This document shows, one piece after another, positions 1,447 to 36,016 of a stretch of 46,691 nucleotides of DNA. Numbering within the stretch: the first letter of the stretch is position 1; every line of letters starts with the position of its first letter. The stretch lies in assembly GCA_964537235.1 (NCBI GenBank), contig CAZHZQ010000002.1, forward strand, positions 1 to 46,691, written 5' to 3'. This stretch comes from an uncultured Actinomycetota bacterium (GTDB lineage: Bacteria; Actinomycetota; Nitriliruptoria; Nitriliruptorales; JAHWKO01). The notes beneath the pieces are model-generated. The model searched no databases, was not told the origin of the DNA, and saw only the letters and a list, made by a program, of their open reading frames with translations. A program made the translations under genes and the position numbers.

Positions 1447-2769
1447 TCAGTCCTCCGCGTCGGTGCCCTTGGGGCCGAACAGCTCTTCGGCGAAGCGCTG
1501 GGCCGCCGCTCGCTGCATGCCTGGCACCAGGTGCGTGTACGTCTTCAGCATGAACGCAGCGGACGCCCACCCGAGACGTTCCTGTACGACCTTCGGGTTC
1601 TCGCCGTTCGCGAGCAGCAGGGAGGCGTAGGTGTGTCTGACGTCGTGTAGGCGGATCGCGGGTACACCCGCCTCCTCGCAGAGCGAGGCGAACTCGTGAC
1701 TGATCCAGTCGGGGTTGAGGTGGCGTCCGTCGGGCCAGGTAAACAGGAACGAACCGTGGCCGATGGCTCCGTGGCCCCGTCGACAGGAGTCGTGTACTTG
1801 GTTGCCTCGCCAAGCGCGACCGCACTCCCGCCGCCACCCATCGCGATGCTCGCGCCACCTACGCAATGATTCGAGGGTGTAGTCGTCGAGGTCGACCGGG
1901 CGGCTTCCAGCGCCGGACTTCATGACCGGCTTGTGGACCGGCGCTGTGACTCCCTCCTCCTCGACCTGTTCCTCGGGTACCAACTGCCAGGCGACGACCA
2001 GCTTTCCCTCGTCGAGATCGACGTTCTCGTCGACCAGACCACCGAGCTCTCCGCGGCGCATCCCGGTCGTCGCTACGAGCAGCCACATCGGGTAGAGCCA
2101 GTGGTCCCCGGCGTAGGACAGGAACGTGGTCAGCTGCTCGGGCGTCCAGATCTGGATCGCGCGGCGTCGTGCCGCCTCGACGGAGGCGTTCGACGGAGGG
2201 TCGGCGAGCGTCGCCACGTTCTGCTCGACGACGCCCCACTTGCGGGCATCCCGCAGGGCCTTGCGGATGACGCCATGGATCTGGACGACCGTGGCCGGCG
2301 CTAGGGGCTGGCGTTCCTCCTCCGTAGGGGGAGGCTTACCTCGAAGGAGCGCCGAGTAGAAGCGATCGAGGTGGGCTGCGGTCAACTCTTGGAGCGGGAC
2401 TCCTCCGAGGTGGGGGACGAGGTGACGTTCCACGGCGTTGCGGATGTTGCGGTACCGATTGGGACTCACCTTCGGAGGCAACTGGGTCTCGAGCCACTCG
2501 CGGACGAGGAAGTCCTCGAGGGTTCGCCCTGAGGGTTCAACGTACGTCGAGCCGTCGACCTTGGAGAGGAGCTCACGGAGGGCGCGTTCCGCCTCCCGCT
2601 TGGTGTCGAAACCACCACCCCGGCGCTGCAGCCTGCGACCGTTGCGGTCCTTGCCGACATCCACTCGGAACGACCACGACGACTGTCGTCCCTCGCACGT
2701 CTCGTCGTGTCGACCAGTCCCCGGTCGTCGACCGCAGGTCGTACAGCGCTTGAACACGCTCCCCTTCAC
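1447..2769 (-). CDS. int: Tyrosine recombinase / phage-type site-specific integrase
   Basis: 440 aa with a GTG start. The C-terminal catalytic region RLHDVRHTYASLLLANG ... LKTYTHLVPG carries the HxxR and catalytic Tyr context. The N-terminus has the SAM-like/arm-binding style typical of actinobacterial element integrases. Confidence 0.93.
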   Translation of the reverse strand: MKGSVFKRCTTCGRRPGTGRHDETCEGRQSSWSFRVDVGKDRNGRRLQRRGGGFDTKREAERALRELLSKVDGSTYVEPSGRTLEDFLVREWLETQLPPKVSPNRYRNIRNAVERHLVPHLGGVPLQELTAAHLDRFYSALLRGKPPPTEEERQPLAPATVVQIHGVIRKALRDARKWGVVEQNVATLADPPSNASVEAARRRAIQIWTPEQLTTFLSYAGDHWLYPMWLLVATTGMRRGELGGLVDENVDLDEGKLVVAWQLVPEEQVEEEGVTAPVHKPVMKSGAGSRPVDLDDYTLESLRRWREHRDGWRRECGRAWRGNQVHDSCRRGHGAIGHGSFLFTWPDGRHLNPDWISHEFASLCEEAGVPAIRLHDVRHTYASLLLANGENPKVVQERLGWASAAFMLKTYTHLVPGMQRAAAQRFAEELFGPKGTDAED

Positions 2770-2894
2770 ACGGAACCCCTCTCGTTGCCCTCGAACAGGC
2801 CAGGGTGCGTGGAAGGCGAGCGGCTGTCACGCGAGAGCACGTCAGGCCTGTGGACAACGCCTGTTCGACCGTTGGCGCTGCTTGAAGCCATCCC

Positions 2895-3101
2895 TCAAGC
2901 CTCCTCCGCCACCAGGGCTGGGAGGCCGTCGAGGCCGAGGAGGTCGAGGAGTTTGCCGGTGGGCACGATGATGCGTCCGCCGATGCGGAAGGAGGGGATC
3001 TCGCCTCGGTTGACGCCGCGGTAGGCGGAGGAGCGGGAGATGCCCAGCAGTCGTCCGGCTTGTTCGACGGTGAGGGTGGCGGGGTAGCCGTTGGTGGTCA
3101 T
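2895..3101 (-). CDS. xis: Excisionase-family helix-turn-helix DNA-binding protein
   Basis: I chose the internal ATG at 3099-3101, which is preceded by a GGAGGAACC Shine-Dalgarno. The 68-aa product reads MTTNGYPATLTVEQAGRLLGISRSSAYRGVNRGEIPSFRIGGRIIVPTGKLLDLLG, a typical Xis/MerR-like HTH. It sits immediately upstream of int. Confidence 0.8.
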   Translation of the reverse strand: MTTNGYPATLTVEQAGRLLGISRSSAYRGVNRGEIPSFRIGGRIIVPTGKLLDLLGLDGLPALVAEEA

Positions 3102-3263
3102 GGTTCCTCCTGGTTGTGTTGGCACATAGGGAGCCCCCGGGCGGCACGCCCGTTTGTGACATCGACTTCGAAATTGTTGGAGATCCCCTGTCATCTCATG
3201 GAGGCCGTTTGGGACCGCCTCATGTGACATCCGACCGCCAAGTTGTTGTGGATACGGCCGGAA

Positions 3264-6200
3264 TCAGCGGCTGATGCCGCGGCCGAGGCCGCGGGCGGGC
3301 GGGTCGCGGTCGACCTGCCGGCCGGCCTCGTGCGTGCGCTGTTGACGGGTGACCTCGAGCAGCGCGTCGAGGGCCTGGTTGCGGGTGGCCTGCTGTTGCG
3401 GGTCGGCGGGGCGTGGTTGTCCGAGGGGGCTGGTGGGGTCGCGGACGTCGTAGAGGGTCCGGTACTCCTCGACCAGCCTGGCCGCCTTCGCCCAGGTCTC
3501 GTGTTCGGGTCCGGTGGCGGGTGGGGTGCCGATGGTGGCGGTCAGGTAGCCGGGTGGCTGACGGAGGACGGCGGCCGTCCGCTGTTGGACGACCTGGTGT
3601 AGCTGGTGGGCGAGGTCGGCCCGTTCGGTCTTCCAGGCGTCGACCTGAGCGTCGTCGGGTAGCTGTGTGAGCTTCCGTCGGGCCAGGGTGCGCTGTCGGT
3701 GCAGGTCGTGCAGCCGGTTTCGGCCGTCGTCGATCTGCCGGTATAGCTGCTCGATCTCCTGCCTGGTGCCGCGGCGGAGCTGGCGGATGCCGGACAGCTC
3801 CTGCCGGCGGGCCTCGGCGTGGTGGATGGCGGCGACGGCCGCTTCGTAGGCGTCCGACGCCTCCTGCTCGGCCTGGACGAGCTGTCGCCGGGTGTCCTGA
3901 ACCTGGGTGATGCGCCTGCCGAGGTCCACGAACCGGGTGGCGGTCTGCCGGACCTGCTCGACGTCGTAGGAGTCGGGCAGGAAGGCGACGGCGGGGGTCT
4001 GCGCGGCCGATCGGCGCAGTCCGGCGACGGTGCGGGTGTGGGGGTCGGGGTCGGGCTGCTGCTGGTGGTGGTGGATGTCGTGGGGGTCGTCGGTGGCGGG
4101 GTGGACGTACAGGCGGTTGGTGTGCCGGCCGCGGGACATCGCGACGTAGCCCCATTCGCGGTACAGCAGGTCCGAGCCGAGCACGAACGCATGGTCGACG
4201 GTAAGGCCTTGGGCTTTGTGGCCGGTGATCGCGTACCCGTGCGCCACATGGCCGGCCTGCACGTAGGCCTCTGGCAGGTGTAGGACGGTGCCGCGATCGT
4301 CGACCGCCGACAGCCCGCCGTCGTCGGTGATGTCGGTGATGGTGGCGAAGGTGCCGTTGACCACGCCGAGCCGCCGGTCGTTTCGCAGGCACAGGATCCG
4401 GTCCCCGGCCCGGAACGTCCGCCCGTCGTCGGTCTCGAGGACCGGCCCGGTCAGGTGTCCGGCGGCGTCGGCCCGTAGCCGCGCCCGCTGGTTGAGATCG
4501 TCGACATCGGTCTGCCGCAGCGCGATCATCACCGCCTGGTCGGCGCCGACCTGATGTCGGGCGTGCCACCAGTCGGACACCAGCTGCTCGCGCAGCCCTT
4601 CGGCGGTGTCGCCGGTGACGAGCTGGCCGTGTTCGTCGTACAGACCCAGGGCGTCGGCGGGGTCGCCGTGCCGAAGCCGGTCGAGCGCGTCGATCTCCCA
4701 GGCTTGTGTCTGCCGGCGGTTGTCGGTCAGCTCGATCGCGTCCAGCCGCTGTGTGAGGGTGGAGAAGAGGCCGCCGGCGTCGATCTCGGGCAGCTGGTGT
4801 GGGTCGCCGACCAGCACCACCTTCACCCGCTGCGCCTCACAGTGATCGAGCAGCCGGGCGAGCTGGCGGGTGCCGACCATCCCGGCCTCGTCCACCACGA
4901 GCACCGACCCGGGCACCAGCGGAGAGCCGACACCGCGATCGATGTCGTGCAGCAGCTTGTGGATCGTGGTCGACGGGATGCCCGCCGAGTCCTGCAGCTC
5001 CTGTGCCGCGCGCGCGGCCAGCGCCACACCGTGCATGTCGATCCCGGAGCTCTGCCAGGCATGGCGGGCGGCGTCCAACGCGAAGGTCTTGCCGGTCCCG
5101 GCCTTCCCGACCACGACGGTCACACCGTCGCCGTCGCGGGACAGTCGCGTCAGCATGTCGATCTGCTCGCCGGTCAGCGTCGGGTGGACCGCCATGACGC
5201 GGCGGATCGTCTCTGCGTCGACCGTCGCCGCATCGTCGTCTTGGCGGGCGATGGAGGTGTTGATGGCGTGCTGTTCGGCCAGCAGCAGCCCCCGGGTGGT
5301 CATGCGCACCTCGTCATCGGTCCCGCCGGCGATGGTGCGTCCGTCGGCTGTGCGGATCACGTCCACCGACGACAGACGGCCACGGGTCGCGCCGAGGGTG
5401 ATCACCTGGTCGCGGCCGGCCGCCAACACCGCCTCCGCGAGCTGTTCGATGTCTTCGACGGTTGCGCCGTCGGGCAGCCGTTCGGCGACCGCCCGCAGCA
5501 GGTCCCGGCGGGTGAACGTCGCCGCCTTCGCGGTCAGCGCCTCGTCGCCGACCAGCTCCTCGGCCAACACATCCACGTCCGGCGCTTCTGCGGTGTGTCG
5601 GTTCAGGAGCCGTTCGAGGTCGGACCGGTCGAACCCCAACTCACGGGCCCGGGCCGCCCACCCTGCGCGCAGCTCCCGCTCGGTCGGCTGCACGCCCTTC
5701 GCGTCGCGGGTGCTGAGCGTGGCGACCTGGGCGGCCTTGGCCGACGACTCCCCACGCTCGGCGAGCTTGTCGAGGATCGCCTGGCGGCGTTGGGAGAACG
5801 CGTCGATCAACTGGCGGTCGATCCCGGCGATGTCCGCGTACCCGTTGGTCACCGGCCCCCACTCGACCCCCAGACGCTCGGTGAGCTCGTGACGCAACTG
5901 GGCCTGGTAGAGGAACCCGGCCGTCTTGGCGTGCTGGTACATCCGCCGCGACTCGAACGTCCGCCACTTCCCGTCATCGGATGCGCGTACGAGGTTGGCG
6001 GCCAGCACGTGGGTGTGCAGCAGCGGATCACCCGCCCTCGACGTGCGATGCGTGAACGCCGCGCCGATCAGTCCGTCCACCTCAACCCGCTCCACCCCGC
6101 CCGCGCCGCGTCGAGTACGTAACGCGTGACGTTCGAGGTAGCCGACCGCGGCCTTGACCCCGGCGTCGTGAGCGGCCTGGACCTGTCCGGCGGTGTGCTG

Positions 6201-6512
6201 GTCGCCGAGCGCCCAAGCGATCGACACCGACTTCGGTGCCCGGAACGTCATATCGAACCCGGGGATCTTGCGGGCCGGATGCGACGCCAACCGCACCCCC
6301 GACGAAGGATCGTCGCCAGCCAGCACCGCACGCAGCGCGTCGGCCTCCACCTTCGCCCCACGTTCAAGACCGACGGGGTCCAGGCCGCGGCCGAGCCAAC
6401 GGCCCGGCGCCTCACCGCGGCGCAGGTAGTACTCCTCGGACCCGTCAGCCACCTGCGACAGGTAGTAGTCCTCCGACCCCGGCGCCATCTTCCCCACGTT
6501 CAACACCGGCAT
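3264..6512 (-). CDS. MobF-family conjugative relaxase (TrwC/TraA-type) fused to a RecD-like helicase
   Basis: 1082 aa. The N-terminus MPVLNVGKMAPGSEDYYL and the His triad DPLLHTHVLAAN match TrwC-type relaxases. Walker A VVVGKAGTGKTF and the C-terminal GYAITGHKAQGLTVDHAFVL match the helicase part. Confidence 0.93.
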   Translation of the reverse strand: MPVLNVGKMAPGSEDYYLSQVADGSEEYYLRRGEAPGRWLGRGLDPVGLERGAKVEADALRAVLAGDDPSSGVRLASHPARKIPGFDMTFRAPKSVSIAWALGDQHTAGQVQAAHDAGVKAAVGYLERHALRTRRGAGGVERVEVDGLIGAAFTHRTSRAGDPLLHTHVLAANLVRASDDGKWRTFESRRMYQHAKTAGFLYQAQLRHELTERLGVEWGPVTNGYADIAGIDRQLIDAFSQRRQAILDKLAERGESSAKAAQVATLSTRDAKGVQPTERELRAGWAARARELGFDRSDLERLLNRHTAEAPDVDVLAEELVGDEALTAKAATFTRRDLLRAVAERLPDGATVEDIEQLAEAVLAAGRDQVITLGATRGRLSSVDVIRTADGRTIAGGTDDEVRMTTRGLLLAEQHAINTSIARQDDDAATVDAETIRRVMAVHPTLTGEQIDMLTRLSRDGDGVTVVVGKAGTGKTFALDAARHAWQSSGIDMHGVALAARAAQELQDSAGIPSTTIHKLLHDIDRGVGSPLVPGSVLVVDEAGMVGTRQLARLLDHCEAQRVKVVLVGDPHQLPEIDAGGLFSTLTQRLDAIELTDNRRQTQAWEIDALDRLRHGDPADALGLYDEHGQLVTGDTAEGLREQLVSDWWHARHQVGADQAVMIALRQTDVDDLNQRARLRADAAGHLTGPVLETDDGRTFRAGDRILCLRNDRRLGVVNGTFATITDITDDGGLSAVDDRGTVLHLPEAYVQAGHVAHGYAITGHKAQGLTVDHAFVLGSDLLYREWGYVAMSRGRHTNRLYVHPATDDPHDIHHHQQQPDPDPHTRTVAGLRRSAAQTPAVAFLPDSYDVEQVRQTATRFVDLGRRITQVQDTRRQLVQAEQEASDAYEAAVAAIHHAEARRQELSGIRQLRRGTRQEIEQLYRQIDDGRNRLHDLHRQRTLARRKLTQLPDDAQVDAWKTERADLAHQLHQVVQQRTAAVLRQPPGYLTATIGTPPATGPEHETWAKAARLVEEYRTLYDVRDPTSPLGQPRPADPQQQATRNQALDALLEVTRQQRTHEAGRQVDRDPPARGLGRGISR

Positions 6513-6948: not shown

Positions 6949-7528
6949 GTGTTTGACCAACCAGGCATCGACCTCGACCGCGACCTCGCCTGGATCCACC
7001 GCGATCAGTACGTCTACTTCATCGAGATCGCCCACGCCCTCGGCGATCCTGACGACTGGGCCAGCTTCCGGGCTGATCTCGCCGAGGCCCTGGCGGCAGT
7101 GTTCAGCCTTTACCCGCACCCCACCCTGGGCGGACCGACGCAGCAGCGAAGACCTCAAGACCCGATAGCGGGTACTCGACGTCCTCGACTCGGTCCGGTT
7201 CCGCCACCACCCAGCCGGCGACTGGGACGGATTCTTCGACGCACTCTGGGAGCGGCGGTCCGAGCTAGGAGACGACCTCTGATTCCCCCTGGATGGAGGC
7301 CGAGTCAGGCGGACGAGCTAGGGACGGTCCCCGCGCAGATAGCCACCGACTACCGGTACGAGACCCACGCATTGGGGATGGCGTTTATGCTCTTCCTGCG
7401 GACCGCCCAACGGGTGCTGGTCTACAACGGGGTGGAACACCGCCGGATCCTACGACGACGCCCTCAAGAAGATCCTCGCCGAGTTCGACAGGCTCATGGA
7501 GCTTCCCCACATGGACCGTCAGGGCTAA
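6949..7528 (+). pseudogene. Decayed ORF(s): coding signal hops between frames, with an in-frame TAG
   Basis: High-GC3 segments lie in frame 1 (6949 to about 7130, FDQPGIDLDRDLAWIHRDQYVYFIEIAHALGDPDDWASFRADLAEALAAVF) and then frame 2 (ADRRSSEDLKTR-TAG-RVLDVLDSVRFRHHPAGDWDGFFDALWERRSELGDDL, stop at 7280). The signal returns to frame 1 (DYRYETHALGMAFMLFLRTAQRVLVYNGVEH) and frame 2 again (GSYDDALKKILAEFDRLMELPHMDRQG, stop at 7526). Confidence 0.4.
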
Positions 7529-7552
7529 TGGTGATGGCCGCTGTCCCGGGCC

Positions 7553-7804
7553 CTAGTTGATGGCACGTTGACTAGGTAGATCCCCGATTAGCGCTTCGAC
7601 GCTCTCCAGCCCGTAGGCGGCCTGCAACTTCAGGAGCACTGCGATCGTCGGATTGGCCTCGGTCGAGTTCTCGAGCTTGCTGATGTGTGCACGGCTAACA
7701 CCAGACCGCTCCGCGGCTTCGCGAAGCGCGTACCCACGCGCGAGTCGAAGCTCGCGCAACCGAGAGCCGATGCCGCTTAAGTCGACGTCCACTATAAGAG
7801 ACAA
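7553..7804 (-). CDS. XRE-family (Cro/C1-type) helix-turn-helix transcriptional regulator
   Basis: 83 aa. The sequence LRELRLARGYALREAAERSGVSRAHISKLENSTEANPTIAVLLKLQAAYG is a canonical XRE HTH. It is divergent from the cargo operon. Confidence 0.88.
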   Translation of the reverse strand: MSLIVDVDLSGIGSRLRELRLARGYALREAAERSGVSRAHISKLENSTEANPTIAVLLKLQAAYGLESVEALIGDLPSQRAIN

Positions 7805-8004
7805 GCGGGGGTGCGCGGCGGTCGGTCAAAGTCGTTGAACATGAGTGACTTCGCCGCCGTATAGCGGTAGAATGCCACCGATGTGAGTAGTGGAGCCTTC
7901 ACGGTTCATGTTATCAACAGTCTACTATGATGGACACCCGGAAGGGTTCGGACGCGATTAGCCTCACAGGGAACCGAGATCGGGATGCCCGAAGGAGCAG
8001 CACC
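7805..8004. promoter_or_regulatory. Divergent promoter/operator region between the XRE gene and the cargo operon
   Basis: An imperfect inverted repeat GTTGAACATG (7834-7843) / CATGTTATCAAC (7907-7918) brackets the A/T-richer intergenic DNA, which contains TAGAAT-like hexamers. A GAAGGAG Shine-Dalgarno sits at 7991-7997. Confidence 0.4.
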
Positions 8005-8595
8005 ATGAGGGCGCAGTTGCACGACTCCCCCAAGCTCTTGCTCACATTCCGGGAGTGCGCTCGAATCGCTGGCCATCTCGCGACGTTCTGTGACCGTGCT
8101 GAACATGTCGAGGTTTCCGACCGGAGCGTGTTGAGCGACTCCGGACAGCGGCTCAGAAATCTCTCCGTCTCTTTGGCAGAACTTGGGGGTATCCCACTGC
8201 TCGAGTACTACGCGGAAAGACTTCGAGGGATCGAGACCGACCACCCGCTGCGAACAGCTGCTTCGCCGATATTTCACGAGGCAGCGCGCGCAGCCCGAAC
8301 GTGGAGGCAACTGCAAGAGATCCAGGCTGGGCACGACCGCTGGTACCACCCCGACGTCTTCGGGCTCAGCAAGTCGGATCAGGTCCGCCACTACACGCTT
8401 CACGTGACGAAGCTCACGGGCCACCTATCTCAGCTTCTCGATCCGAGCGAAGCCGACTGGGGCGAGTTCGCACGCAGACGGGTACCTGACTTCCTAGTGT
8501 TCGGGTTGAAGATGTCCACCTTGGCCGGAGAGACTCTGCCCGACGAGGCGGACTACCTGCTAGAGCAGGCCCGTTCCGAACTCCAACCGGTCTAG
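8005..8595 (+). CDS. Hypothetical His-rich all-helical protein (possible four-helix-bundle, MazG/DinB-like; unverified)
   Basis: The ORF track gives 7927..8595. I prefer the ATG at 8005 because a strong GAAGGAG lies 7 nt upstream. The product is 196 aa, MRAQLHDSPKLLLTFRECARIAGHLATF... Third-position G/C looks higher than the local average. The stop lies 15 nt before the next gene. Confidence 0.65.
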   Translation: MRAQLHDSPKLLLTFRECARIAGHLATFCDRAEHVEVSDRSVLSDSGQRLRNLSVSLAELGGIPLLEYYAERLRGIETDHPLRTAASPIFHEAARAARTWRQLQEIQAGHDRWYHPDVFGLSKSDQVRHYTLHVTKLTGHLSQLLDPSEADWGEFARRRVPDFLVFGLKMSTLAGETLPDEADYLLEQARSELQPV

Positions 8596-8610
8596 CTGGA
8601 CTGAATTGGC

Positions 8611-10839
8611 TTGGCTCGCAAGCGTCTACTTCACCTCTCTGATCTGCACCTTGGCACGAACCCGGATTGGCAGACAACTGGTGACTACAAGTCGGACATC
8701 GTCCGGGTGGATGAACGACAGAACCGAGTTCAGCTTCTCCGGAACTCGCTAGTCGCCCTCGCTGACTACCTACGGAGTTCTGGACAGAGCCTCGACGCAG
8801 TAGTCATCACTGGCGACGTCACGTACAAGGGAGACCCGGAGGGCTTCGACGAGCTCCCAGACCTGCTCGACCAGCTTGGAGACACCAAACCCGAACCCGA
8901 CCACATCGTCATCGTTCCTGGCAACCACGATTTCGAGTGGGGCGCCTCCCCTTCTTCGGAAGAACGCTACGACAGATGGAAGCGGCTCCGGGATGACGGG
9001 TACGTGATTCCGTACCTCGATGGGGTTGACATCGACGCCTCAGGGACCCTTACCAACCCGGCGAGCCAGCCACTGTTGGTCGATGATGACGGGGCGTTCG
9101 TCGTCGCCGCCATCAACTCGGCCAACTACTGCGCTGGGAACGAGCGGCTGAACGGCATCGACGAGGACTCCCTGGGAGAAGTCGCGGACGAGTTCTCCGA
9201 CGATGAGCGCATCGTGGCAGTGCTTGAGAATCTGAGGTCGCTACGGAAGGCCGACGTGGCACGCATCAGCCCTGGACAACTGTCGGCCCTCGCAACCGCC
9301 CTTGAGCCCCATATCAGATCGGAACCCAAGCCACTGATCATCTGTGCACTTCACCACCACCTTCTGCCGGTGTCAGCAGGTGAGGAGTTCAAGCGGTACG
9401 AGTCCATAACGAACTTGGGAGAAGTCAGAGCCTTCCTCGGCTCGAACGACGTGAGACTCGTGCTACACGGTCACAAACACCACCCTGCGCTGCTTGTCGA
9501 TCACCCTCACGAGCACTCGACGATTCGGCGGCCGGACCTGGACTGGGTGACGCCCGTCTATATCTCGTCGGTGGGCACTATCGGCCACGGACGTGGCCCA
9601 AACGACGAGATAGCACGGCTTGTAGAGATCGGAACTGAGCTTCCGCGTGCTCGCCGCGTGGTCGTTCGTGAGGTGTTGGCCCGATCTGCGGGTGCTCGAT
9701 ACGACGATGAGCCTGCAGTTGTCGGCAGCCTGACCCTGACCGGACGACGAGCTCGAGAGACGGGTTACCCCATTCATGCCGTCGAGGGCCTCGACGTGGA
9801 CGAGGTGTATCAGAAGATCCTTGCGCTGTTCGATGAAGCCGGTCAGTCAGCGGGCACCGTCGTCCGGAATCTGGTATGCCGAGTGGCTGACGGCACGTCA
9901 GCGTCCTCGCCCCCGGTTGGCTTCCCCGACGTGCCCGGTAGGGACGACTTGGACGAGTGGTTCGACGAGATCGTCGAGTGGTGGCAGAGAGAGGACTCCG
10001 GTCTTGAGGAGCCTCATTTCAACCACGGAGAGAGGATCCACCGACAAGGAGCAGGAAGAAGCCAGATCGAAGACGTTGCAGACGCGCTGGACGCTGAGCC
10101 TCGCACAACCCGCGGCGTGGCAGTTGTCGTCAGTCCCGGAATCGATGACGTTGGGAACACGCGGGTCCGGATGCCTTCATTTTGTCTGGCTCATTTCGTC
10201 CTGGACGCGAGCGGACGAAGGCTCGACACCATCGCCTACTTCCGGAAGCAGCAAATGCGCACATGGTGGCCGGTCAACGTGGGTGAGCTCCGGCGTTTGC
10301 AGAGCGGTGTTATCGATGCGCTTGCCACTCGCGGGCGGGACGTCTCTCCGGGTGAAATCGTGACCTTCGCGGCCGAAGCCATATGGGGTACGGACCGCCC
10401 ACGAGTCATGGTCCCGAACGTCGACCGGCTAGCTCAGGACGACCCTGCAGTCCTGTGGAAGACGGCCCTTCGGGCCTTCGCCGCGGACGAGGACTTCACC
10501 CCATCGATATGGGAAGACCTGTTCGCCGATTGGCTTCCTGGTGAACAGATGGAACCCGACGGTGTGCCCATTGCCATCCGAGGCATCGAGATGCTCGCAG
10601 GCATCATCGGGACGCTTGCCGACTTCCACGATTCCGAGCCGGGCAGTCGCCTAGCCGCGGAGTTCGACAGCTTGCTTCACAACAACCGAACATACTCCGC
10701 ACAGGAGGATCAACCAGAAGGACGGGATTCGACTGCGCGGCGTGTTGCCTTCGATCAGTGGCGAGGGGAAGTCGGAAGGAGGATGGATGCCATCGTTCGG
10801 CACACCGAGGAACTGCGCGACGATATCTCGAGCGAGTGA
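8611..10839 (+). CDS. Fusion protein: N-terminal calcineurin-like metallophosphoesterase plus thymidylate-synthase/dCMP-hydroxymethylase-like domain plus C-terminal helical tail
   Basis: 742 aa with a TTG start. MPE motifs appear in order: HLSDLHLG (D11/H13), ITGDVTYKG (D69), VPGNHD (N105/H106), LHHHLL, LHGHKHH (H286/H288). Residues about 385-605 align by eye to E. coli ThyA. [40 protein letters not shown] matches [63 protein letters not shown] matches [24 protein letters not shown]. Confidence 0.85.
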   Translation: [742 protein letters not shown]

Positions 10840-11024
10840 ACCCCTCGGACCTGATAGGTATGTCTGTCAGGGTGAGGATCCGGGGGACAGTCTTGGGCAC
10901 AGCCTGGGCACGACTTGCGCGAGACACGTCGACACGCGGTGCAACACGCCGTTACCGCCACGCCGTTTCCCCAGGTCAGAGGCATGAGCCGGTATCCCGT
11001 GGGCCAGGTGAAACGAACCGAAGT

Positions 11025-11069
11025 CCCCTGACAAGGGTGAGGTCCCTGGTTCAAATCCAGGTCGGCCCA
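11025..11069 (+). other. tRNA-Val(GAC) 3' fragment (anticodon loop to discriminator); candidate att core remnant
   Basis: The sequence CCCCTGACAAGGGTG-AGGTC-CCTGG-TTCAAAT-CCAGG-TCGGCCC-A parses as an anticodon loop CTGACAA, variable loop AGGTC, a perfect T-arm with a TTCAAAT loop, a 7-nt acceptor 3' strand and discriminator A. No matching 5' acceptor or D-arm lies upstream, so it is not an intact tRNA. Confidence 0.45.
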
Positions 11070-11332
11070 CAACTGCTCGTCGCATGTCTCCTGGACGACC
11101 GTGGCCGGCACAGCGGCGGCTCGACATACTTGCCGAGCACCCTGGATCACCGGATATCACAGGCCCCGCTCGATCGGTCTCCCTCTGTTACGAGCACTGC
11201 GCCGAACCAGCAACGAAAAGCAAGGCGGGCCGTTCGAAAGCTTCGCCGCTGCCTCGCTCTGGGCTGCAGCGTCCTGACCGAAACCAACAACGATCAGCGC
11301 AGCAGAACTGAGCCGACGGATGGAGACCTGCC

Positions 11333-11935
11333 ATGACAGACGAGAACACGGAACAGAGCCGCCGGCCCGACAGCCAGGACGGTCATGCGGGCATGCAGAA
11401 ACAGATGTACCTGCGGTTCGCCGCGATGATCCTCACCGGGATGGTGGTCATGTACTTCGTGATGTTCGTCGGCTCCTGGGAGCTGAGCCACGTGCGGTTC
11501 AGCCAGAGCCGCATCTTCATGGCGGTGACCATGGGCGGAGCCATGGGCCTGGTCATGCTCGCGTGGATGCTCAACATGTACCGCAGCACCACGGCCAACG
11601 TCATCGTGGTGGTCGTGAGCCTGCTGCTGTTGGCGACCGGGACCGTGCTGGACCGCAGCCAGACGACCGTCGACGACATCGCCTTCATGAAGGGGATGAT
11701 CCCGCACCACTCGTTGGCCATCACCCGCTCGGAGCGGTTCAACGTCGAGGATGTGCGCGTGTGCGAGCTCGCCGTGGAGATCAGCGAGGCCCAGCGGCGT
11801 GAGATCCTCGAGATGGACTGGCTGATCGACGACATCGCGCAGAACGGCCCCGCGTCCACCCCCGAGGAAGCCGAAGCACGCCCCGTTCCGAACTTCGACC
11901 GGCCCGCCCAACGGCAGTGTCCGACAGACGGCTGA
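11333..11935 (+). CDS. DUF305-family membrane-associated protein
   Basis: 200 aa with two or three hydrophobic helices, followed by the FMKGMIPHHSLAI and AQRREILEM motifs characteristic of DUF305 as I recall the family. A GGAGAC RBS lies upstream of the ATG. Confidence 0.8.
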   Translation: MTDENTEQSRRPDSQDGHAGMQKQMYLRFAAMILTGMVVMYFVMFVGSWELSHVRFSQSRIFMAVTMGGAMGLVMLAWMLNMYRSTTANVIVVVVSLLLLATGTVLDRSQTTVDDIAFMKGMIPHHSLAITRSERFNVEDVRVCELAVEISEAQRREILEMDWLIDDIAQNGPASTPEEAEARPVPNFDRPAQRQCPTDG

Positions 11936-34187: not shown

Positions 34188-36005
34188 ATGAACAGCCAAG
34201 ATCGCCGCGTGCTGGCCCCGTTCCGGCTCCGTACGGTCCGGATGGGGGTCCGGGCGACGCTGCTGATCGTGCCGGGCCTCGCGGCGATCCCGTTCCTTCC
34301 GGGGGCGAGCATCCCCAACCCCGTCGCGTACTGGGTGTTGCTCGGGACGACACTGGCCGGGGTCGCCGGTGTGGCGGCCCTGCCGTGGCAGCGGTTGCTC
34401 CTGCAGCCGACGGGCGAGTGGCTGCTGTACGCCTGGTCGGTCCTCGACATCGGGCTGATCAGCGGGTTCGTGGCGATCACCGGCGGTGGGCACACCCCCT
34501 TCCTGTTGGTCTACGCGCTGACGACCGTGTTCTTCGCCGCCTCCTACCCCCGCCGCGGGCAGTACGCGCTGTTCGCCCTGACGGCGGTCGCGTACATCGT
34601 GGCGGCGAGCCTCGGGGCCGACGGCCTGACCGCGGCGGACGCCGCCGTCGTCGTCACCACCTTGGGAGTCCTCGCCTACATGACCGGGTTCGTCTCCCGT
34701 GAGCTCCTGGCACAAGCCACATCCAGCCAGCGAGCCCGACAGGAGGCGGACCATCGAGCCGAGCTGCTCGCACGTGCAGGCGAGGCGGCGCGGACGATCA
34801 CCTCACTGGATCTCGACGAGGTGCTCGACGCGGTCGTCGACGCGGCCGCCGGCCTGGGGTTCGAAGCGGCGAACATCGACGTCTTCGATCAGGACGACGA
34901 GACCTACCGGGTCGCCCATCCCCGGGGCCTGCCTGCCGACTACGTCGAGGGCACGGTCTACCCCGCCGACCACGGGATGCCGGGTCTCGTGCGCGAAGCC
35001 CGCGAGACCATCACGGTCGACGACTACCGCGGGTACGACAAGGCGATCCCCGTGCTCGCCGCGTCCGGGTTCCGAGCGGTGATCGCCGCGCCGGTCTGGG
35101 TGCAGGGCCATCTGGCCGCGGTGCTCGTCGCCGGCACGCGCGAGGCGCGCCGCATCGGACCGTCCGAGGTGGAGGCGTTCGACCTCCTCGCGGCGCAGGC
35201 CGGACGGGCGCTCGAGAACGCCGCGCAGTTCAACTCGGAACTGCGCACGATCGAGCGGCTCGCCGAACTCGATCGGCTGAAGAGCGATTTCGTCGCGAAC
35301 GCTTCCCACGAGCTCCGTACTCCGCTGACCGTGATCTCCGGGCTGACCCATACCGTGAGCGAGCGCTGGGACCGGCTCGACGCCCAGGACCGACTACAGC
35401 TGTTCCAACGGATCCGAGCCAACGCGATCGCTCTGGAGGAGATCGTCGGGACCCTGCTCGACTTCTCGCGGCTGGAGCGGGGGCGCCTCGAGGCCACCAC
35501 CGAGCCCGTGGACCTGTCCGGCTTGGTGCGCGAGGTGACGGACCGCCTCCGCCCCATGGCCGACGACCACCGGTTCGGGTCGCAGATCGACGACGGGTTG
35601 CGCGTGGTCGCCGACCGTGTCCTCATCGAGCGGGTCGTCGAGAACCTGGTGACGAACGCGTTCACGCACACCCCTCCCGGCACCCGCGTGCTCGTGCGGG
35701 TACGCGGGAGCGGCGATCACGCCGAGGTCGCGGTCGTCGATGACGGTCCGGGGGTCGACGAGCAGGAGCGGGATCACCTCGGCGAACGCTTCTTCCGGGG
35801 CGGGGACGTGCACACCCGGCCGACACGCGGGCTGGGGTTGGGGCTGGCCATGTCCATGGAGATCCTGGATCTGCACGGCAGCCAGCTGGAGGTCGACAGC
35901 GCGCTGGGCGAAGGATCCACGTTCTCGTTCCGGCTGGAGCTGGTGGACCCGATCGGAGTCGAACCGACGACATCCGCCTTGCAAAGACGGCGCTCTGCCA
36001 ACTGA
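34188..36005 (+). CDS. Sensor histidine kinase (polytopic N-terminus, GAF domain, HisKA, HATPase_c)
   Basis: The H-box is FVANASHELRTPLT. The N-box is NLVTNAFTHT, G1 is VVDDGPGV and G2 is GLGLGLAMS. The last roughly 20 codons read through the antisense of tRNA-Ala. No cognate response regulator lies adjacent. Confidence 0.87.
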   Translation: MNSQDRRVLAPFRLRTVRMGVRATLLIVPGLAAIPFLPGASIPNPVAYWVLLGTTLAGVAGVAALPWQRLLLQPTGEWLLYAWSVLDIGLISGFVAITGGGHTPFLLVYALTTVFFAASYPRRGQYALFALTAVAYIVAASLGADGLTAADAAVVVTTLGVLAYMTGFVSRELLAQATSSQRARQEADHRAELLARAGEAARTITSLDLDEVLDAVVDAAAGLGFEAANIDVFDQDDETYRVAHPRGLPADYVEGTVYPADHGMPGLVREARETITVDDYRGYDKAIPVLAASGFRAVIAAPVWVQGHLAAVLVAGTREARRIGPSEVEAFDLLAAQAGRALENAAQFNSELRTIERLAELDRLKSDFVANASHELRTPLTVISGLTHTVSERWDRLDAQDRLQLFQRIRANAIALEEIVGTLLDFSRLERGRLEATTEPVDLSGLVREVTDRLRPMADDHRFGSQIDDGLRVVADRVLIERVVENLVTNAFTHTPPGTRVLVRVRGSGDHAEVAVVDDGPGVDEQERDHLGERFFRGGDVHTRPTRGLGLGLAMSMEILDLHGSQLEVDSALGEGSTFSFRLELVDPIGVEPTTSALQRRRSAN

Positions 36006-36016
36006 GCTACGGGCCC
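35941..36016 (-). tRNA. tRNA-Ala (anticodon UGC), CCA encoded
   Basis: The reverse complement is GGGCCCGTAGCTCAGTTGGCAGAGCGCCGTCTTTGCAAGGCGGATGTCGTCGGTTCGACTCCGATCGGGTCCACCA. It folds as a cloverleaf with a G3:U70 pair, anticodon loop TTTGCAA and T-loop TTCGACT. Confidence 0.92.

Follow-up and report, generated by a model that had tools for sequence, protein, structure and literature searches.

Two anti-phage systems of Escherichia coli offer the closest described parallels to the gene that is the subject of this work. The first, PUA-Cal-HAD, is system DS-9 of DefensePredictor and comes from E. coli ECOR28; its PUA-like domain binds N6-methyl-dAMP (m6-dAMP) from degraded host DNA, and the complex then polymerises (bioRxiv 10.64898/2026.01.15.699771). 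The HAD partner converts deoxynucleoside triphosphates (dNTPs) to diphosphates (dNDPs) and the Calcineurin-CE phosphoesterase converts dNDPs to monophosphates (dNMPs), with collapse of the dNTP pools; the Calcineurin-CE domain also hydrolyses NAD+ in vitro, and mutation of either N367 or the metal ligands abolishes defence (bioRxiv 10.64898/2026.01.15.699771). The second, DS-4, is a validated E. coli anti-phage system comprising a thymidylate synthase (TS), a dNMP kinase, a 5-hydroxymethyldeoxyuridine (5-hmdU) DNA kinase, a TIR protein and Nmad2. Within the TS superfamily, Asn at position 177 selects dUMP (uracil) and Asp selects dCMP, and the flavin-dependent 5hodCMP synthases still keep the catalytic cysteine C146 (PMC13326640). 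Here we describe a gene of an uncultured Actinomycetota bacterium (Nitriliruptoria; Nitriliruptorales; JAHWKO01) that encodes a metallophosphoesterase, predicted to be of the Calcineurin-CE class, fused to a TS-fold domain in which that cysteine is missing. The gene lies on the forward strand of contig CAZHZQ010000002.1 (assembly GCA_964537235.1, positions 1 to 46,691); the whole stretch of 46,691 nucleotides is referred to below as the window.

A thymidylate synthase fold fused to a metallophosphoesterase

The fusion gene and its domains are laid out as follows:

8611-10839, forward strand: fusion gene, an open reading frame (ORF) of 742 codons with a TTG start
8611-9762, forward strand: metallophosphoesterase domain of the Calcineurin-CE class, residues 1-384, predicted active (PF00149, E = 1.5e-13; NF053862, E = 9.6e-31)
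9763-10485, forward strand: TS-fold domain without the catalytic cysteine, residues 385-625 (profile homology; AlphaFold2 and Foldseek)
10486-10836, forward strand: conserved C-terminal helical domain, residues 626-742 (long helices at pLDDT >90)

An earlier note made from the sequence had placed a divergent TS-superfamily domain at 9763-10425, coordinates that are correct and correspond to residues 385-605 of the ORF 8611-10839(+). Four independent routes now bear this assignment out, and their agreement that residues ~385-625 are a genuine TS-superfamily domain is far beyond chance. Among the NCBIfam models, TIGR03283 (archaeal-type TS) matched residues 469-589 with an E-value of 6.9e-6, below its curated cut-off. 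A 30-sequence profile of residues 385-742 retrieved 125 PDB matches at E<=10; among the 60 matches listed, all were TS-superfamily chains except one designed serine hydrolase, with the CMP hydroxymethylase MilA at 4.9e-6 and many ThyA entries at ~3e-5. Such a family profile was needed because single-sequence phmmer with residues 335-742 gave only spurious PDB matches, to designed tetratricopeptide (TPR) repeats. Comparison of hidden Markov models with hhalign was likewise significant: with E. coli ThyA alone as the target the score was 91.9% (E = 7e-7), and with a profile built from ThyA and 27 TS genes that neighbour members of the family it was 98.1% (E = 1.1e-13). Finally, the AlphaFold2 (AF2) model of residues 385-742 was of high confidence (predicted local distance difference test, pLDDT, 93.2; predicted template modelling score, pTM, 0.90) and returned 396 PDB matches at E<=1e-3 in Foldseek. 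All 50 of the 50 among the matches listed were TS-fold enzymes, including the phage dCMP hydroxylase AfhB (target TM-score 0.66), human, mouse and Mycobacterium tuberculosis TS, MilA and T4 dCMP hydroxymethylase. For AfhB, human TS, MilA and the T4 enzyme the Foldseek probability was 1.00 and the target TM-score 0.42-0.66, and the predicted structure superposes on the TS core.

The block-by-block reading behind that first assignment was borne out in part. HGERI aligns with the YGKQW block of ThyA (H472=Y94, G473=G95), SQIEDV...TTRGVAVVV with IDQIT...SRRIIVSAW (R501=R127), YFR(545)KQQ with YQRSCD (R545=R166) and WWPVN(556) with GLPFN (N556=N177), and the DTHLY block is indeed not conserved, its equivalent at residues 589-593 being variable (I/L/E, V/H, G/S). 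One pairing is uncertain: at low local confidence, the profile alignments put WWQ opposite ThyA W80-W83, in place of the proposed match between a helix and IIHELLWFLQ.

A calcineurin-like phosphoesterase is indeed joined to this domain. Pfam recognises PF00149 over residues 5-292 (E-value as listed above) and nothing else in the window protein; PF00303 was not reported for this sequence alone, although several homologues score it. The AF2 model of the full-length protein (pLDDT 90.7, pTM 0.88) leads Foldseek from the N-terminal half to YydD, Rv0805, GpdQ, SMPDL3A and 5'-nucleotidases, and from the C-terminal half to TS enzymes. Across the family, the C-terminal helical domain is conserved jointly with the TS-like domain; comparison with the extensions at the C-termini of DS-4A and of the neighbouring TS proteins detected no relation. 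Comparison with homologues indicates that TTG at 8611 is the real start. Because an in-frame TGA lies 5' of it at 8602-8604, this TTG is the sole possible start that retains LHLSDLH, a conserved metal motif. At 710 amino acids, the protein called in the database begins at V33 and so loses the first metal motif (D11, H13; 8611-8706).

The earlier note knew of no TS-like domain joined to a calcineurin-like phosphoesterase; the fusion is not a one-off but a fixed and widespread architecture. A database search yielded at least 399 full-length homologues with 33-73% identity, several of which carry a precomputed PF00303 match or the Joint Genome Institute (JGI) name 'CpdA/thymidylate synthase', and a search of 1.84 billion representative proteins gave ~243 clusters at 50% identity (E<=1e-30). 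Nearly all of these clusters are 690-790 amino acids long with the TS-like module at ~380-740, and the shorter ones examined are fragments; in this exhaustive representative search the module appeared in no architecture other than the same fusion or fragments of it. No relatives that would point to a phage origin were present in IMG/VR or in 50,697 phage genomes. Full-text searches for TS, metallophosphoesterase and defence, whose coverage did not extend to the paper that defines the Calcineurin-CE class (Nicastro et al. 2023), gave no description of the fusion; an earlier computational description of exactly this fusion is quite possible.

Loss of the catalytic cysteine and conservation of pocket residues

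Conservation was counted in 120 homologues, and 68 metagenomic loci served as a separate check set. Four positions carry the argument:

10177-10179, forward strand: S523, at the position of the ThyA nucleophile C146 (HMMER and two hhalign alignments)
10183-10185, forward strand: C525, the nucleophile candidate of the earlier note, equivalent to ThyA A148 (coordinates checked by translation)
10243-10245, forward strand: R545, equivalent to the phosphate-binding R166 (120/120; three alignments)
10276-10278, forward strand: N556, equivalent to the base-specifying N177 (120/120)

C525 had been read as a nucleophile in register with that of ThyA. The three profile alignments (HMMER against TS and MilA, and the two hhalign runs) agree on a different register, P522=P145, S523=C146, F524=H147, C525=A148, H528=Q151 and F529=F152, which places a serine at the catalytic position. 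Position 523 is Ser in 74 homologues, Ala in 44 and His in 2. Nor is C525 conserved among homologues, as a nucleophile was expected to be: the residue is Cys in only 57 of the 120, otherwise Ser, Val, Ala, Thr or Phe, and at least 12 have neither Cys nor Ser at 523 or 525. The metagenomic loci gave a similar picture, with Cys at 525 in 37 of 68 and no correlation between C525 and the type of partner gene; one metagenomic member has Cys at 523. By contrast, all 27 of the 27 neighbouring TS genes keep R21, E58, Y94, C146, R166, S167, D169, N177, H207 and Y209. Among the TS paralogues of these clusters, the cysteine is thus lost in the fused copy only.

The remaining pocket is preserved in part. 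R545, N556, H472, G473, R475, W458, W552 and E559 are identical in all 120 homologues, Q547 and Q564 are also among the fixed residues of the domain, and R501, equivalent to the R127 that in TS is contributed by the dimer partner, is present in 116. The D169 equivalent is Glu in 101, Gln in 18 (Gln also in the window protein) and Ser in 1; the R126 equivalent is replaced by Ser/Thr. The R21 loop falls within a deletion in the profile alignment, and the equivalents of H207 and Y209, the ligands of the 3'-OH, are not conserved. The binding residues are, to judge from this conservation, under strong selection. Because R545, N556 and R501 are kept, because the Asn is the uracil-selecting residue and because the Cys of C146 is lost, the TS-like domain very probably still binds a uracil-type nucleotide phosphate, and TS-type covalent catalysis is very probably impossible for it. 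Of the dUMP/dCMP-like ligands suggested earlier, the dUMP-like one fits the retained phosphate- and base-binding residues; dCMP does not, since the invariant residue is Asn and not Asp. The suggestion that folate-dependent methyl transfer is absent gains support: such transfer is very unlikely.

In its fold and in the alignable equivalents of R166, R127', N177 and Y94/G95, the domain resembles ThyA, T4 gp42, MilA and AfhB, and it shares its best family match, the small archaeal-type TS model TIGR03283, with the cluster TS genes. It differs from those four enzymes in lacking Cys at C146, in the deleted R21 loop, in the absence of H207/Y209, in having Glu/Gln for D169, in the fused phosphoesterase and in the unique C-terminal helical domain. 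On these residues, it is a homologue and not an enzyme of the TS/C5-modifying class. The alternative that it is an active TS-like enzyme, with C525 or C423 attacking dUMP or dCMP in a protein bifunctional with the phosphatase, takes up the candidate nucleophile of the earlier note, C525. C525 does lie only two residues along the same strand from the canonical position, C423 is present in 119 of 120 homologues, and Cys523 occurs in the one metagenomic member mentioned above. Against this, C525 is Cys in just 48-54% of members and position 523 is Ser/Ala, no catalytic member of the superfamily that has been characterised lacks C146, and the R21 loop, H207 and Y209 are lost; we regard an active enzyme as very improbable.

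C423 (nucleotides 9877-9879), a residue of strand beta-i in the TS-like domain, is far more strongly conserved than C525. TS enzymes are obligate dimers through their beta-sheet, and C423 would be at the subunit interface if the TS dimer mode is retained. These features, together with the two further TS paralogues that the clusters often encode, speak for a domain that, as the degenerate half of a fold made for dimers, recognises a protein, either a phage or a cluster TS-family enzyme, or that serves as a scaffold homodimerising the effector. The invariant residues, however, include the nucleotide pocket (R545, N556, R501) and are not confined to the sheet, and a further TS paralogue is missing from the neighbourhood in the window and in several other loci, which makes a role in protein recognition or scaffolding improbable.

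The phosphoesterase and its relation to PUA-Cal-HAD

The N-terminal half had been described as a calcineurin-like phosphoesterase; more precisely, it belongs to the Calcineurin-CE class, which was already known as a defence effector and was reportedly defined by Nicastro et al. in 2023. Its best NCBIfam model is NF053862, the DS9_1 anti-phage phosphoesterase (107 bits against an equivalog cut-off of 420), and the next metallophosphoesterase model follows at 1.9e-6, ~25 orders of magnitude behind. In hhalign, the family scored 97.6% (E = 4e-12) against DS-9A, as given in the DefensePredictor supplement, with the invariant N169 opposite N367. In the 120 sequences there is little or no variation at D11, H13, D69, N105, H106, H248/249, H286, H288 and H290, and the dinuclear-metal motifs of the calcineurin-like fold are complete. 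We therefore predict that this half is a catalytically intact Calcineurin-CE-class effector.

Many JGI records carry the name CpdA, NCBIfam gives a weak CpdA match (3.7e-5) and Foldseek retrieves Rv0805, all of which would suit a housekeeping 3',5'-cAMP phosphodiesterase with an incidental C-terminal extension. The CpdA model, however, trails the DS-9A-type model by 25 orders of magnitude, conservation is as strong over the C-terminal 360 residues as in the catalytic domain, and the gene is accessory, carried on mobile elements and clustered with nucleotide-modification genes, so that we give a housekeeping role hardly any credence. Another weak match, NF053861 (7.5e-6), is to DS-8, in which a metallophosphatase is joined to NACHT; the likeness there is a broad metallophosphatase effector fused to a sensing or oligomerising module, but DS-8 senses with a STAND NTPase and the present protein has a TS fold.

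PUA-Cal-HAD is the direct precedent, by analogy, for such a protein: there a sensor for a modified dNMP is joined to this effector, and the partner is a second phosphohydrolase. The two share the Calcineurin-CE class, and the fusion keeps the metal ligands and the N367 equivalent that are mutationally essential in PUA-Cal-HAD; in both, the effector carries a fused nucleotide-binding domain (here a predicted one) and is accompanied by a small second gene. They differ in that the partner in the window is a helical protein (MazG in other loci) and not a HAD phosphatase, and in that the ligand of the fusion, if any, should be a uracil-type pyrimidine and not m6-dAMP. Since neither the fusion protein nor its neighbours gave a PUA or HAD match in Pfam or NCBIfam, so that PUA domain and HAD partner are both missing, the fusion is not a member of DS-9.

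Gene organisation of the locus and its relatives

In the window, the fusion gene is preceded by a partner gene, which we call p222, and by a divergently transcribed regulator:

7553-7804, reverse strand: XRE/Cro-type helix-turn-helix (HTH) regulator, divergent from the operon (Pfam HTH_3, E = 1.2e-13)
7845-7873, forward strand: promoter-like site GTGACT-17-TAGAAT between regulator and partner (consensus match only)
7927-8595, forward strand: p222, a helical protein of ~192 amino acids (~192-222 depending on the start), start probably at 8005

The regulator has capH, a regulator of cyclic oligonucleotide-based anti-phage signalling systems (CBASS), as its best PADLOC match (6.7e-11), and in related loci an HTH protein is paired with an ImmA/IrrE (M78) peptidase. 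GTGACT-17-TAGAAT is the sole sigma-70-like match within 7500-11400. The p222 gene stops 15 nucleotides before the fusion gene; its database call (P0143) is 196 amino acids long, and its true start is probably 8005. The p222 family has at least 285 members of ~192 amino acids, all annotated as hypothetical. Its invariant residues (C, D, E, H, E ... H, D, H, D ... H, H, K ... R, D) include a set of Cys, Asp, Glu and His that suggests a metal site.

To place this arrangement among its relatives, we collected 94 related loci from genomes and metagenomes and mapped their neighbours by tblastn; 34 loci were well flanked (>=4 kb on each side). Wherever the contig shows it, the phosphoesterase domain is fused upstream of the TS-like domain. 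Among the well-flanked loci, 28 of 34 carry a gene resembling a 5-hmdU DNA kinase (PF18723, HMUDK_hel), and 31 add one of p222 (13, adjoining the fusion gene), a MazG+MazG_C protein (7) or a TS homologue (13). In 18-19 of the 34 there is also a stand-alone TS-like protein of ~275 amino acids along with the HTH and ImmA/IrrE pair, and some have a C1 peptidase and an AcpS-like gene. The association also holds from the partner's side: all three of the p222 homologues followed lie directly downstream of a metallophosphoesterase of 720-739 amino acids with the kinase next to the pair; in two of these loci kinase, fusion and p222 follow one another in that order on a single strand. SLATT, ThsB-TIR, type I restriction and resolvase genes are among those in the flanks. 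Across the loci, neighbours include SLATT, ThsB-TIR, SIR2, caspase-family, type I/ISP restriction, HTH+ImmA/IrrE and uracil-DNA glycosylase genes.

The stand-alone protein of ~275 amino acids (for example at 1527-2351 in locus L001 and 1673-2272 in L003, and in ~30 other loci) has no Pfam match and hits TIGR03283 at 1.6e-11; it retains the catalytic Cys in an FPC motif. It is a third type of TS paralogue beside the canonical active TS, which occurs in versions of ~512 and ~340 amino acids.

Full-length homologues are also encoded on six rhizobial plasmids, five of them conjugative, where they are annotated just as 'metallophosphoesterase'. In the two plasmid regions examined, both from conjugative plasmids, a MazG-type NTP pyrophosphohydrolase and a uracil-DNA glycosylase lie beside the homologue; on Sinorhizobium fredii pSfreGR64b the flanking genes further encode a C1 peptidase, a caspase-family protein, HTH + ImmA/IrrE and a thymidylate synthase, and on the Agrobacterium vaccinii plasmid a SIR2 protein and an AAA ATPase.

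These neighbourhoods bring the family close to DS-4. In most related loci the fusion gene adjoins homologues of the DS-4A TS (34-40% identity, E down to 1e-40) and of the DS-4C kinase (27-30% identity, 53 loci), and the phosphoesterase fusion takes the place of the TIR effector of DS-4. The systems are nevertheless distinct, since the window locus lacks TS and kinase, and DS-4 lacks a dead TS domain. Among the NCBIfam models, no DS-4-specific one matched the neighbouring genes. Apart from one ThsB-TIR, the annotated neighbourhoods contain no dNMP kinase, TIR or Nmad2, although no search was aimed at these three.

The same genes could be read metabolically. The TS-like domain would then be a substrate selector, and the protein a thymidine- or 5-hmdU-nucleotide phosphohydrolase that clears dTMP/dTTP or sanitises modified dUTP in the manner of phage dTMPases, working beside a TS hydroxymethylase, a 5-hmdU DNA kinase, MazG and uracil-DNA glycosylase. 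This is the main rival, and it retains nucleotide binding by the domain. The neighbours are classic thymidine-hypermodification enzymes (a TS homologue with Asn at 177, and PF18723 HMUDK_hel), MazG-type pyrophosphohydrolase and uracil-DNA glycosylase are adjacent on the plasmids, the fixed architecture is enzyme-like, and Foldseek retrieves 5'-nucleotidases as well. The clusters, however, lack downstream hypermodification transferases and lie in defence islands or mobile elements with TIR, SLATT, SIR2 and CapH/CapP-like regulators; the homologous DS-4 module, which is paired with a TIR effector, gives E. coli protection against phage; and the window version has no TS or kinase with which to cooperate. 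A phosphohydrolase of nucleotide metabolism is accordingly an unlikely account, although if it were true it would be a new kind of thymidine-/5-hmdU-nucleotide phosphohydrolase.

A possible uracil-nucleotide-controlled effector

The reading that we favour, at somewhat better than an even chance, is that the pseudo-enzyme TS domain binds a uracil-type mononucleotide and thereby controls, or gives specificity to, the Calcineurin-CE phosphoesterase within a defence-type module in which p222 or MazG provides a second hydrolytic step. The HTH regulator, p222 and the fusion gene would together encode an anti-phage-type, nucleotide-targeting module. The C-terminal half of the fusion protein would descend from a thymidylate synthase or dUMP hydroxymethylase; gone are the nucleophilic Cys, the R21 loop and the His/Tyr that bind the 3'-OH, and what remains is the phosphate clamp (R545 and the dimer partner's R501) and the uracil-specifying N556. 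The ligand, bound without being modified, may be dUMP, dTMP, 5-hmdUMP or a phosphorylated derivative, and its binding would switch on the phosphoesterase, allosterically or by oligomerisation, or else confer specificity. By analogy with HAD in PUA-Cal-HAD, p222, which would be co-transcribed with the fusion gene, probably supplies a second step of nucleotide breakdown, since it fills the slot held elsewhere by MazG-type pyrophosphohydrolases. Full clusters could make the ligand themselves, with their TS and kinase; for the reduced locus of the window, the source would have to be the invader or damaged DNA. We also count in favour of this reading the mobile carriage of the gene, with the integrase and relaxase in the window and the conjugative plasmids of rhizobia.

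Several observations weigh on the other side. No fold is recognisable in p222: nothing was found in Pfam, NCBIfam or PADLOC with the single sequence or in Pfam with seven members, and profiles of 7 and 40 sequences against the PDB and hhalign against MazG proteins gave nothing significant. By tblastn, the window locus has no homologue of the active TS or the 5-hmdU kinase and is a reduced version consisting of HTH, p222 and fusion; because the kinase and TS of most relatives are missing, what is concluded from full clusters may not hold for it. The invariant set is large for a pure binding domain and would also fit a Cys-independent enzyme, the near-invariance of C423 is unexplained, and the loss of H207/Y209 and of the R21 loop may mean that the ligand is no classical dNMP. 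The pocket itself is assigned from alignments and a predicted model. The TS-like module, moreover, is found essentially only with this phosphoesterase and lacks the mixing and matching of effectors that is typical of defence sensors. What is observed are the domain identities, the conservation of residues, the genes around the fusion and the homology of these genes to validated defence genes; from them we infer ligand binding and the ligand's identity, the phosphoesterase substrate, the activation mechanism, the function of the partner and an anti-phage phenotype.

A bolder version, which we hold tentatively and at less than an even chance, is that the catalysis-dead TS fold is an immune receptor for uracil-derived nucleotides, made by the phage or by the cluster, such as 5-hmdUMP or its phosphorylated form, and gates the Calcineurin-CE effector. 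Together with p222 it would make up a self-sufficient defence module of two genes, and most genomes would use it as effector arm of a DS-4-like TS/5-hmdU-kinase system. DS-4-type nucleotide-modification defence (TS homologue, 5-hmdU DNA kinase, MazG, Nmad) is genetically validated; an immune receptor of this kind would provide the first identified signal-receptor pair for DS-4-like TS/5-hmdU-kinase systems, and a clear example of how bacterial immunity can recruit the fold of a core metabolic enzyme as a pseudo-enzyme sensor. The fusion ties a recognisable, predicted uracil-type nucleotide pocket to an effector class whose chemistry has been worked out for PUA-Cal-HAD, and from this link follow a concrete panel of ligands and a readout. 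The p222 family would gain a functional context as well.

A probable mobile element around the locus

Upstream of the regulator lies the backbone of a mobile element:

1447-6512, reverse strand: mobile-element backbone, with a tyrosine integrase at 1447-2769 (Phage_integrase, E = 8e-18) and a TrwC relaxase/helicase at 3264-6512 (E = 3.8e-87)

The GC content is 61-64% at 6-12 kb and 70-76% beyond. Given the integrase and TrwC relaxase upstream and the drop in GC over this stretch, the locus looks like cargo of an integrative mobilisable element. At 11001-11069(+) there is a weak tRNA-like Rfam match (21 bits against a gathering score of 29; no ARAGORN call), and an exact 19-nucleotide direct repeat, CTGGACGACCGTGGCCGGC, is found at 2281-2299 inside the integrase ORF and at 11091-11109, just past the tRNA-like match. 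The repeat and the tRNA-like match may be the remnant of an attachment site, or may have arisen by chance. Just downstream of the island, 11333-11935(+) encodes a DUF305 membrane protein, and a tRNA-Ala(TGC) gene lies at 35941-36016(-); both are apparently unrelated to the fusion.

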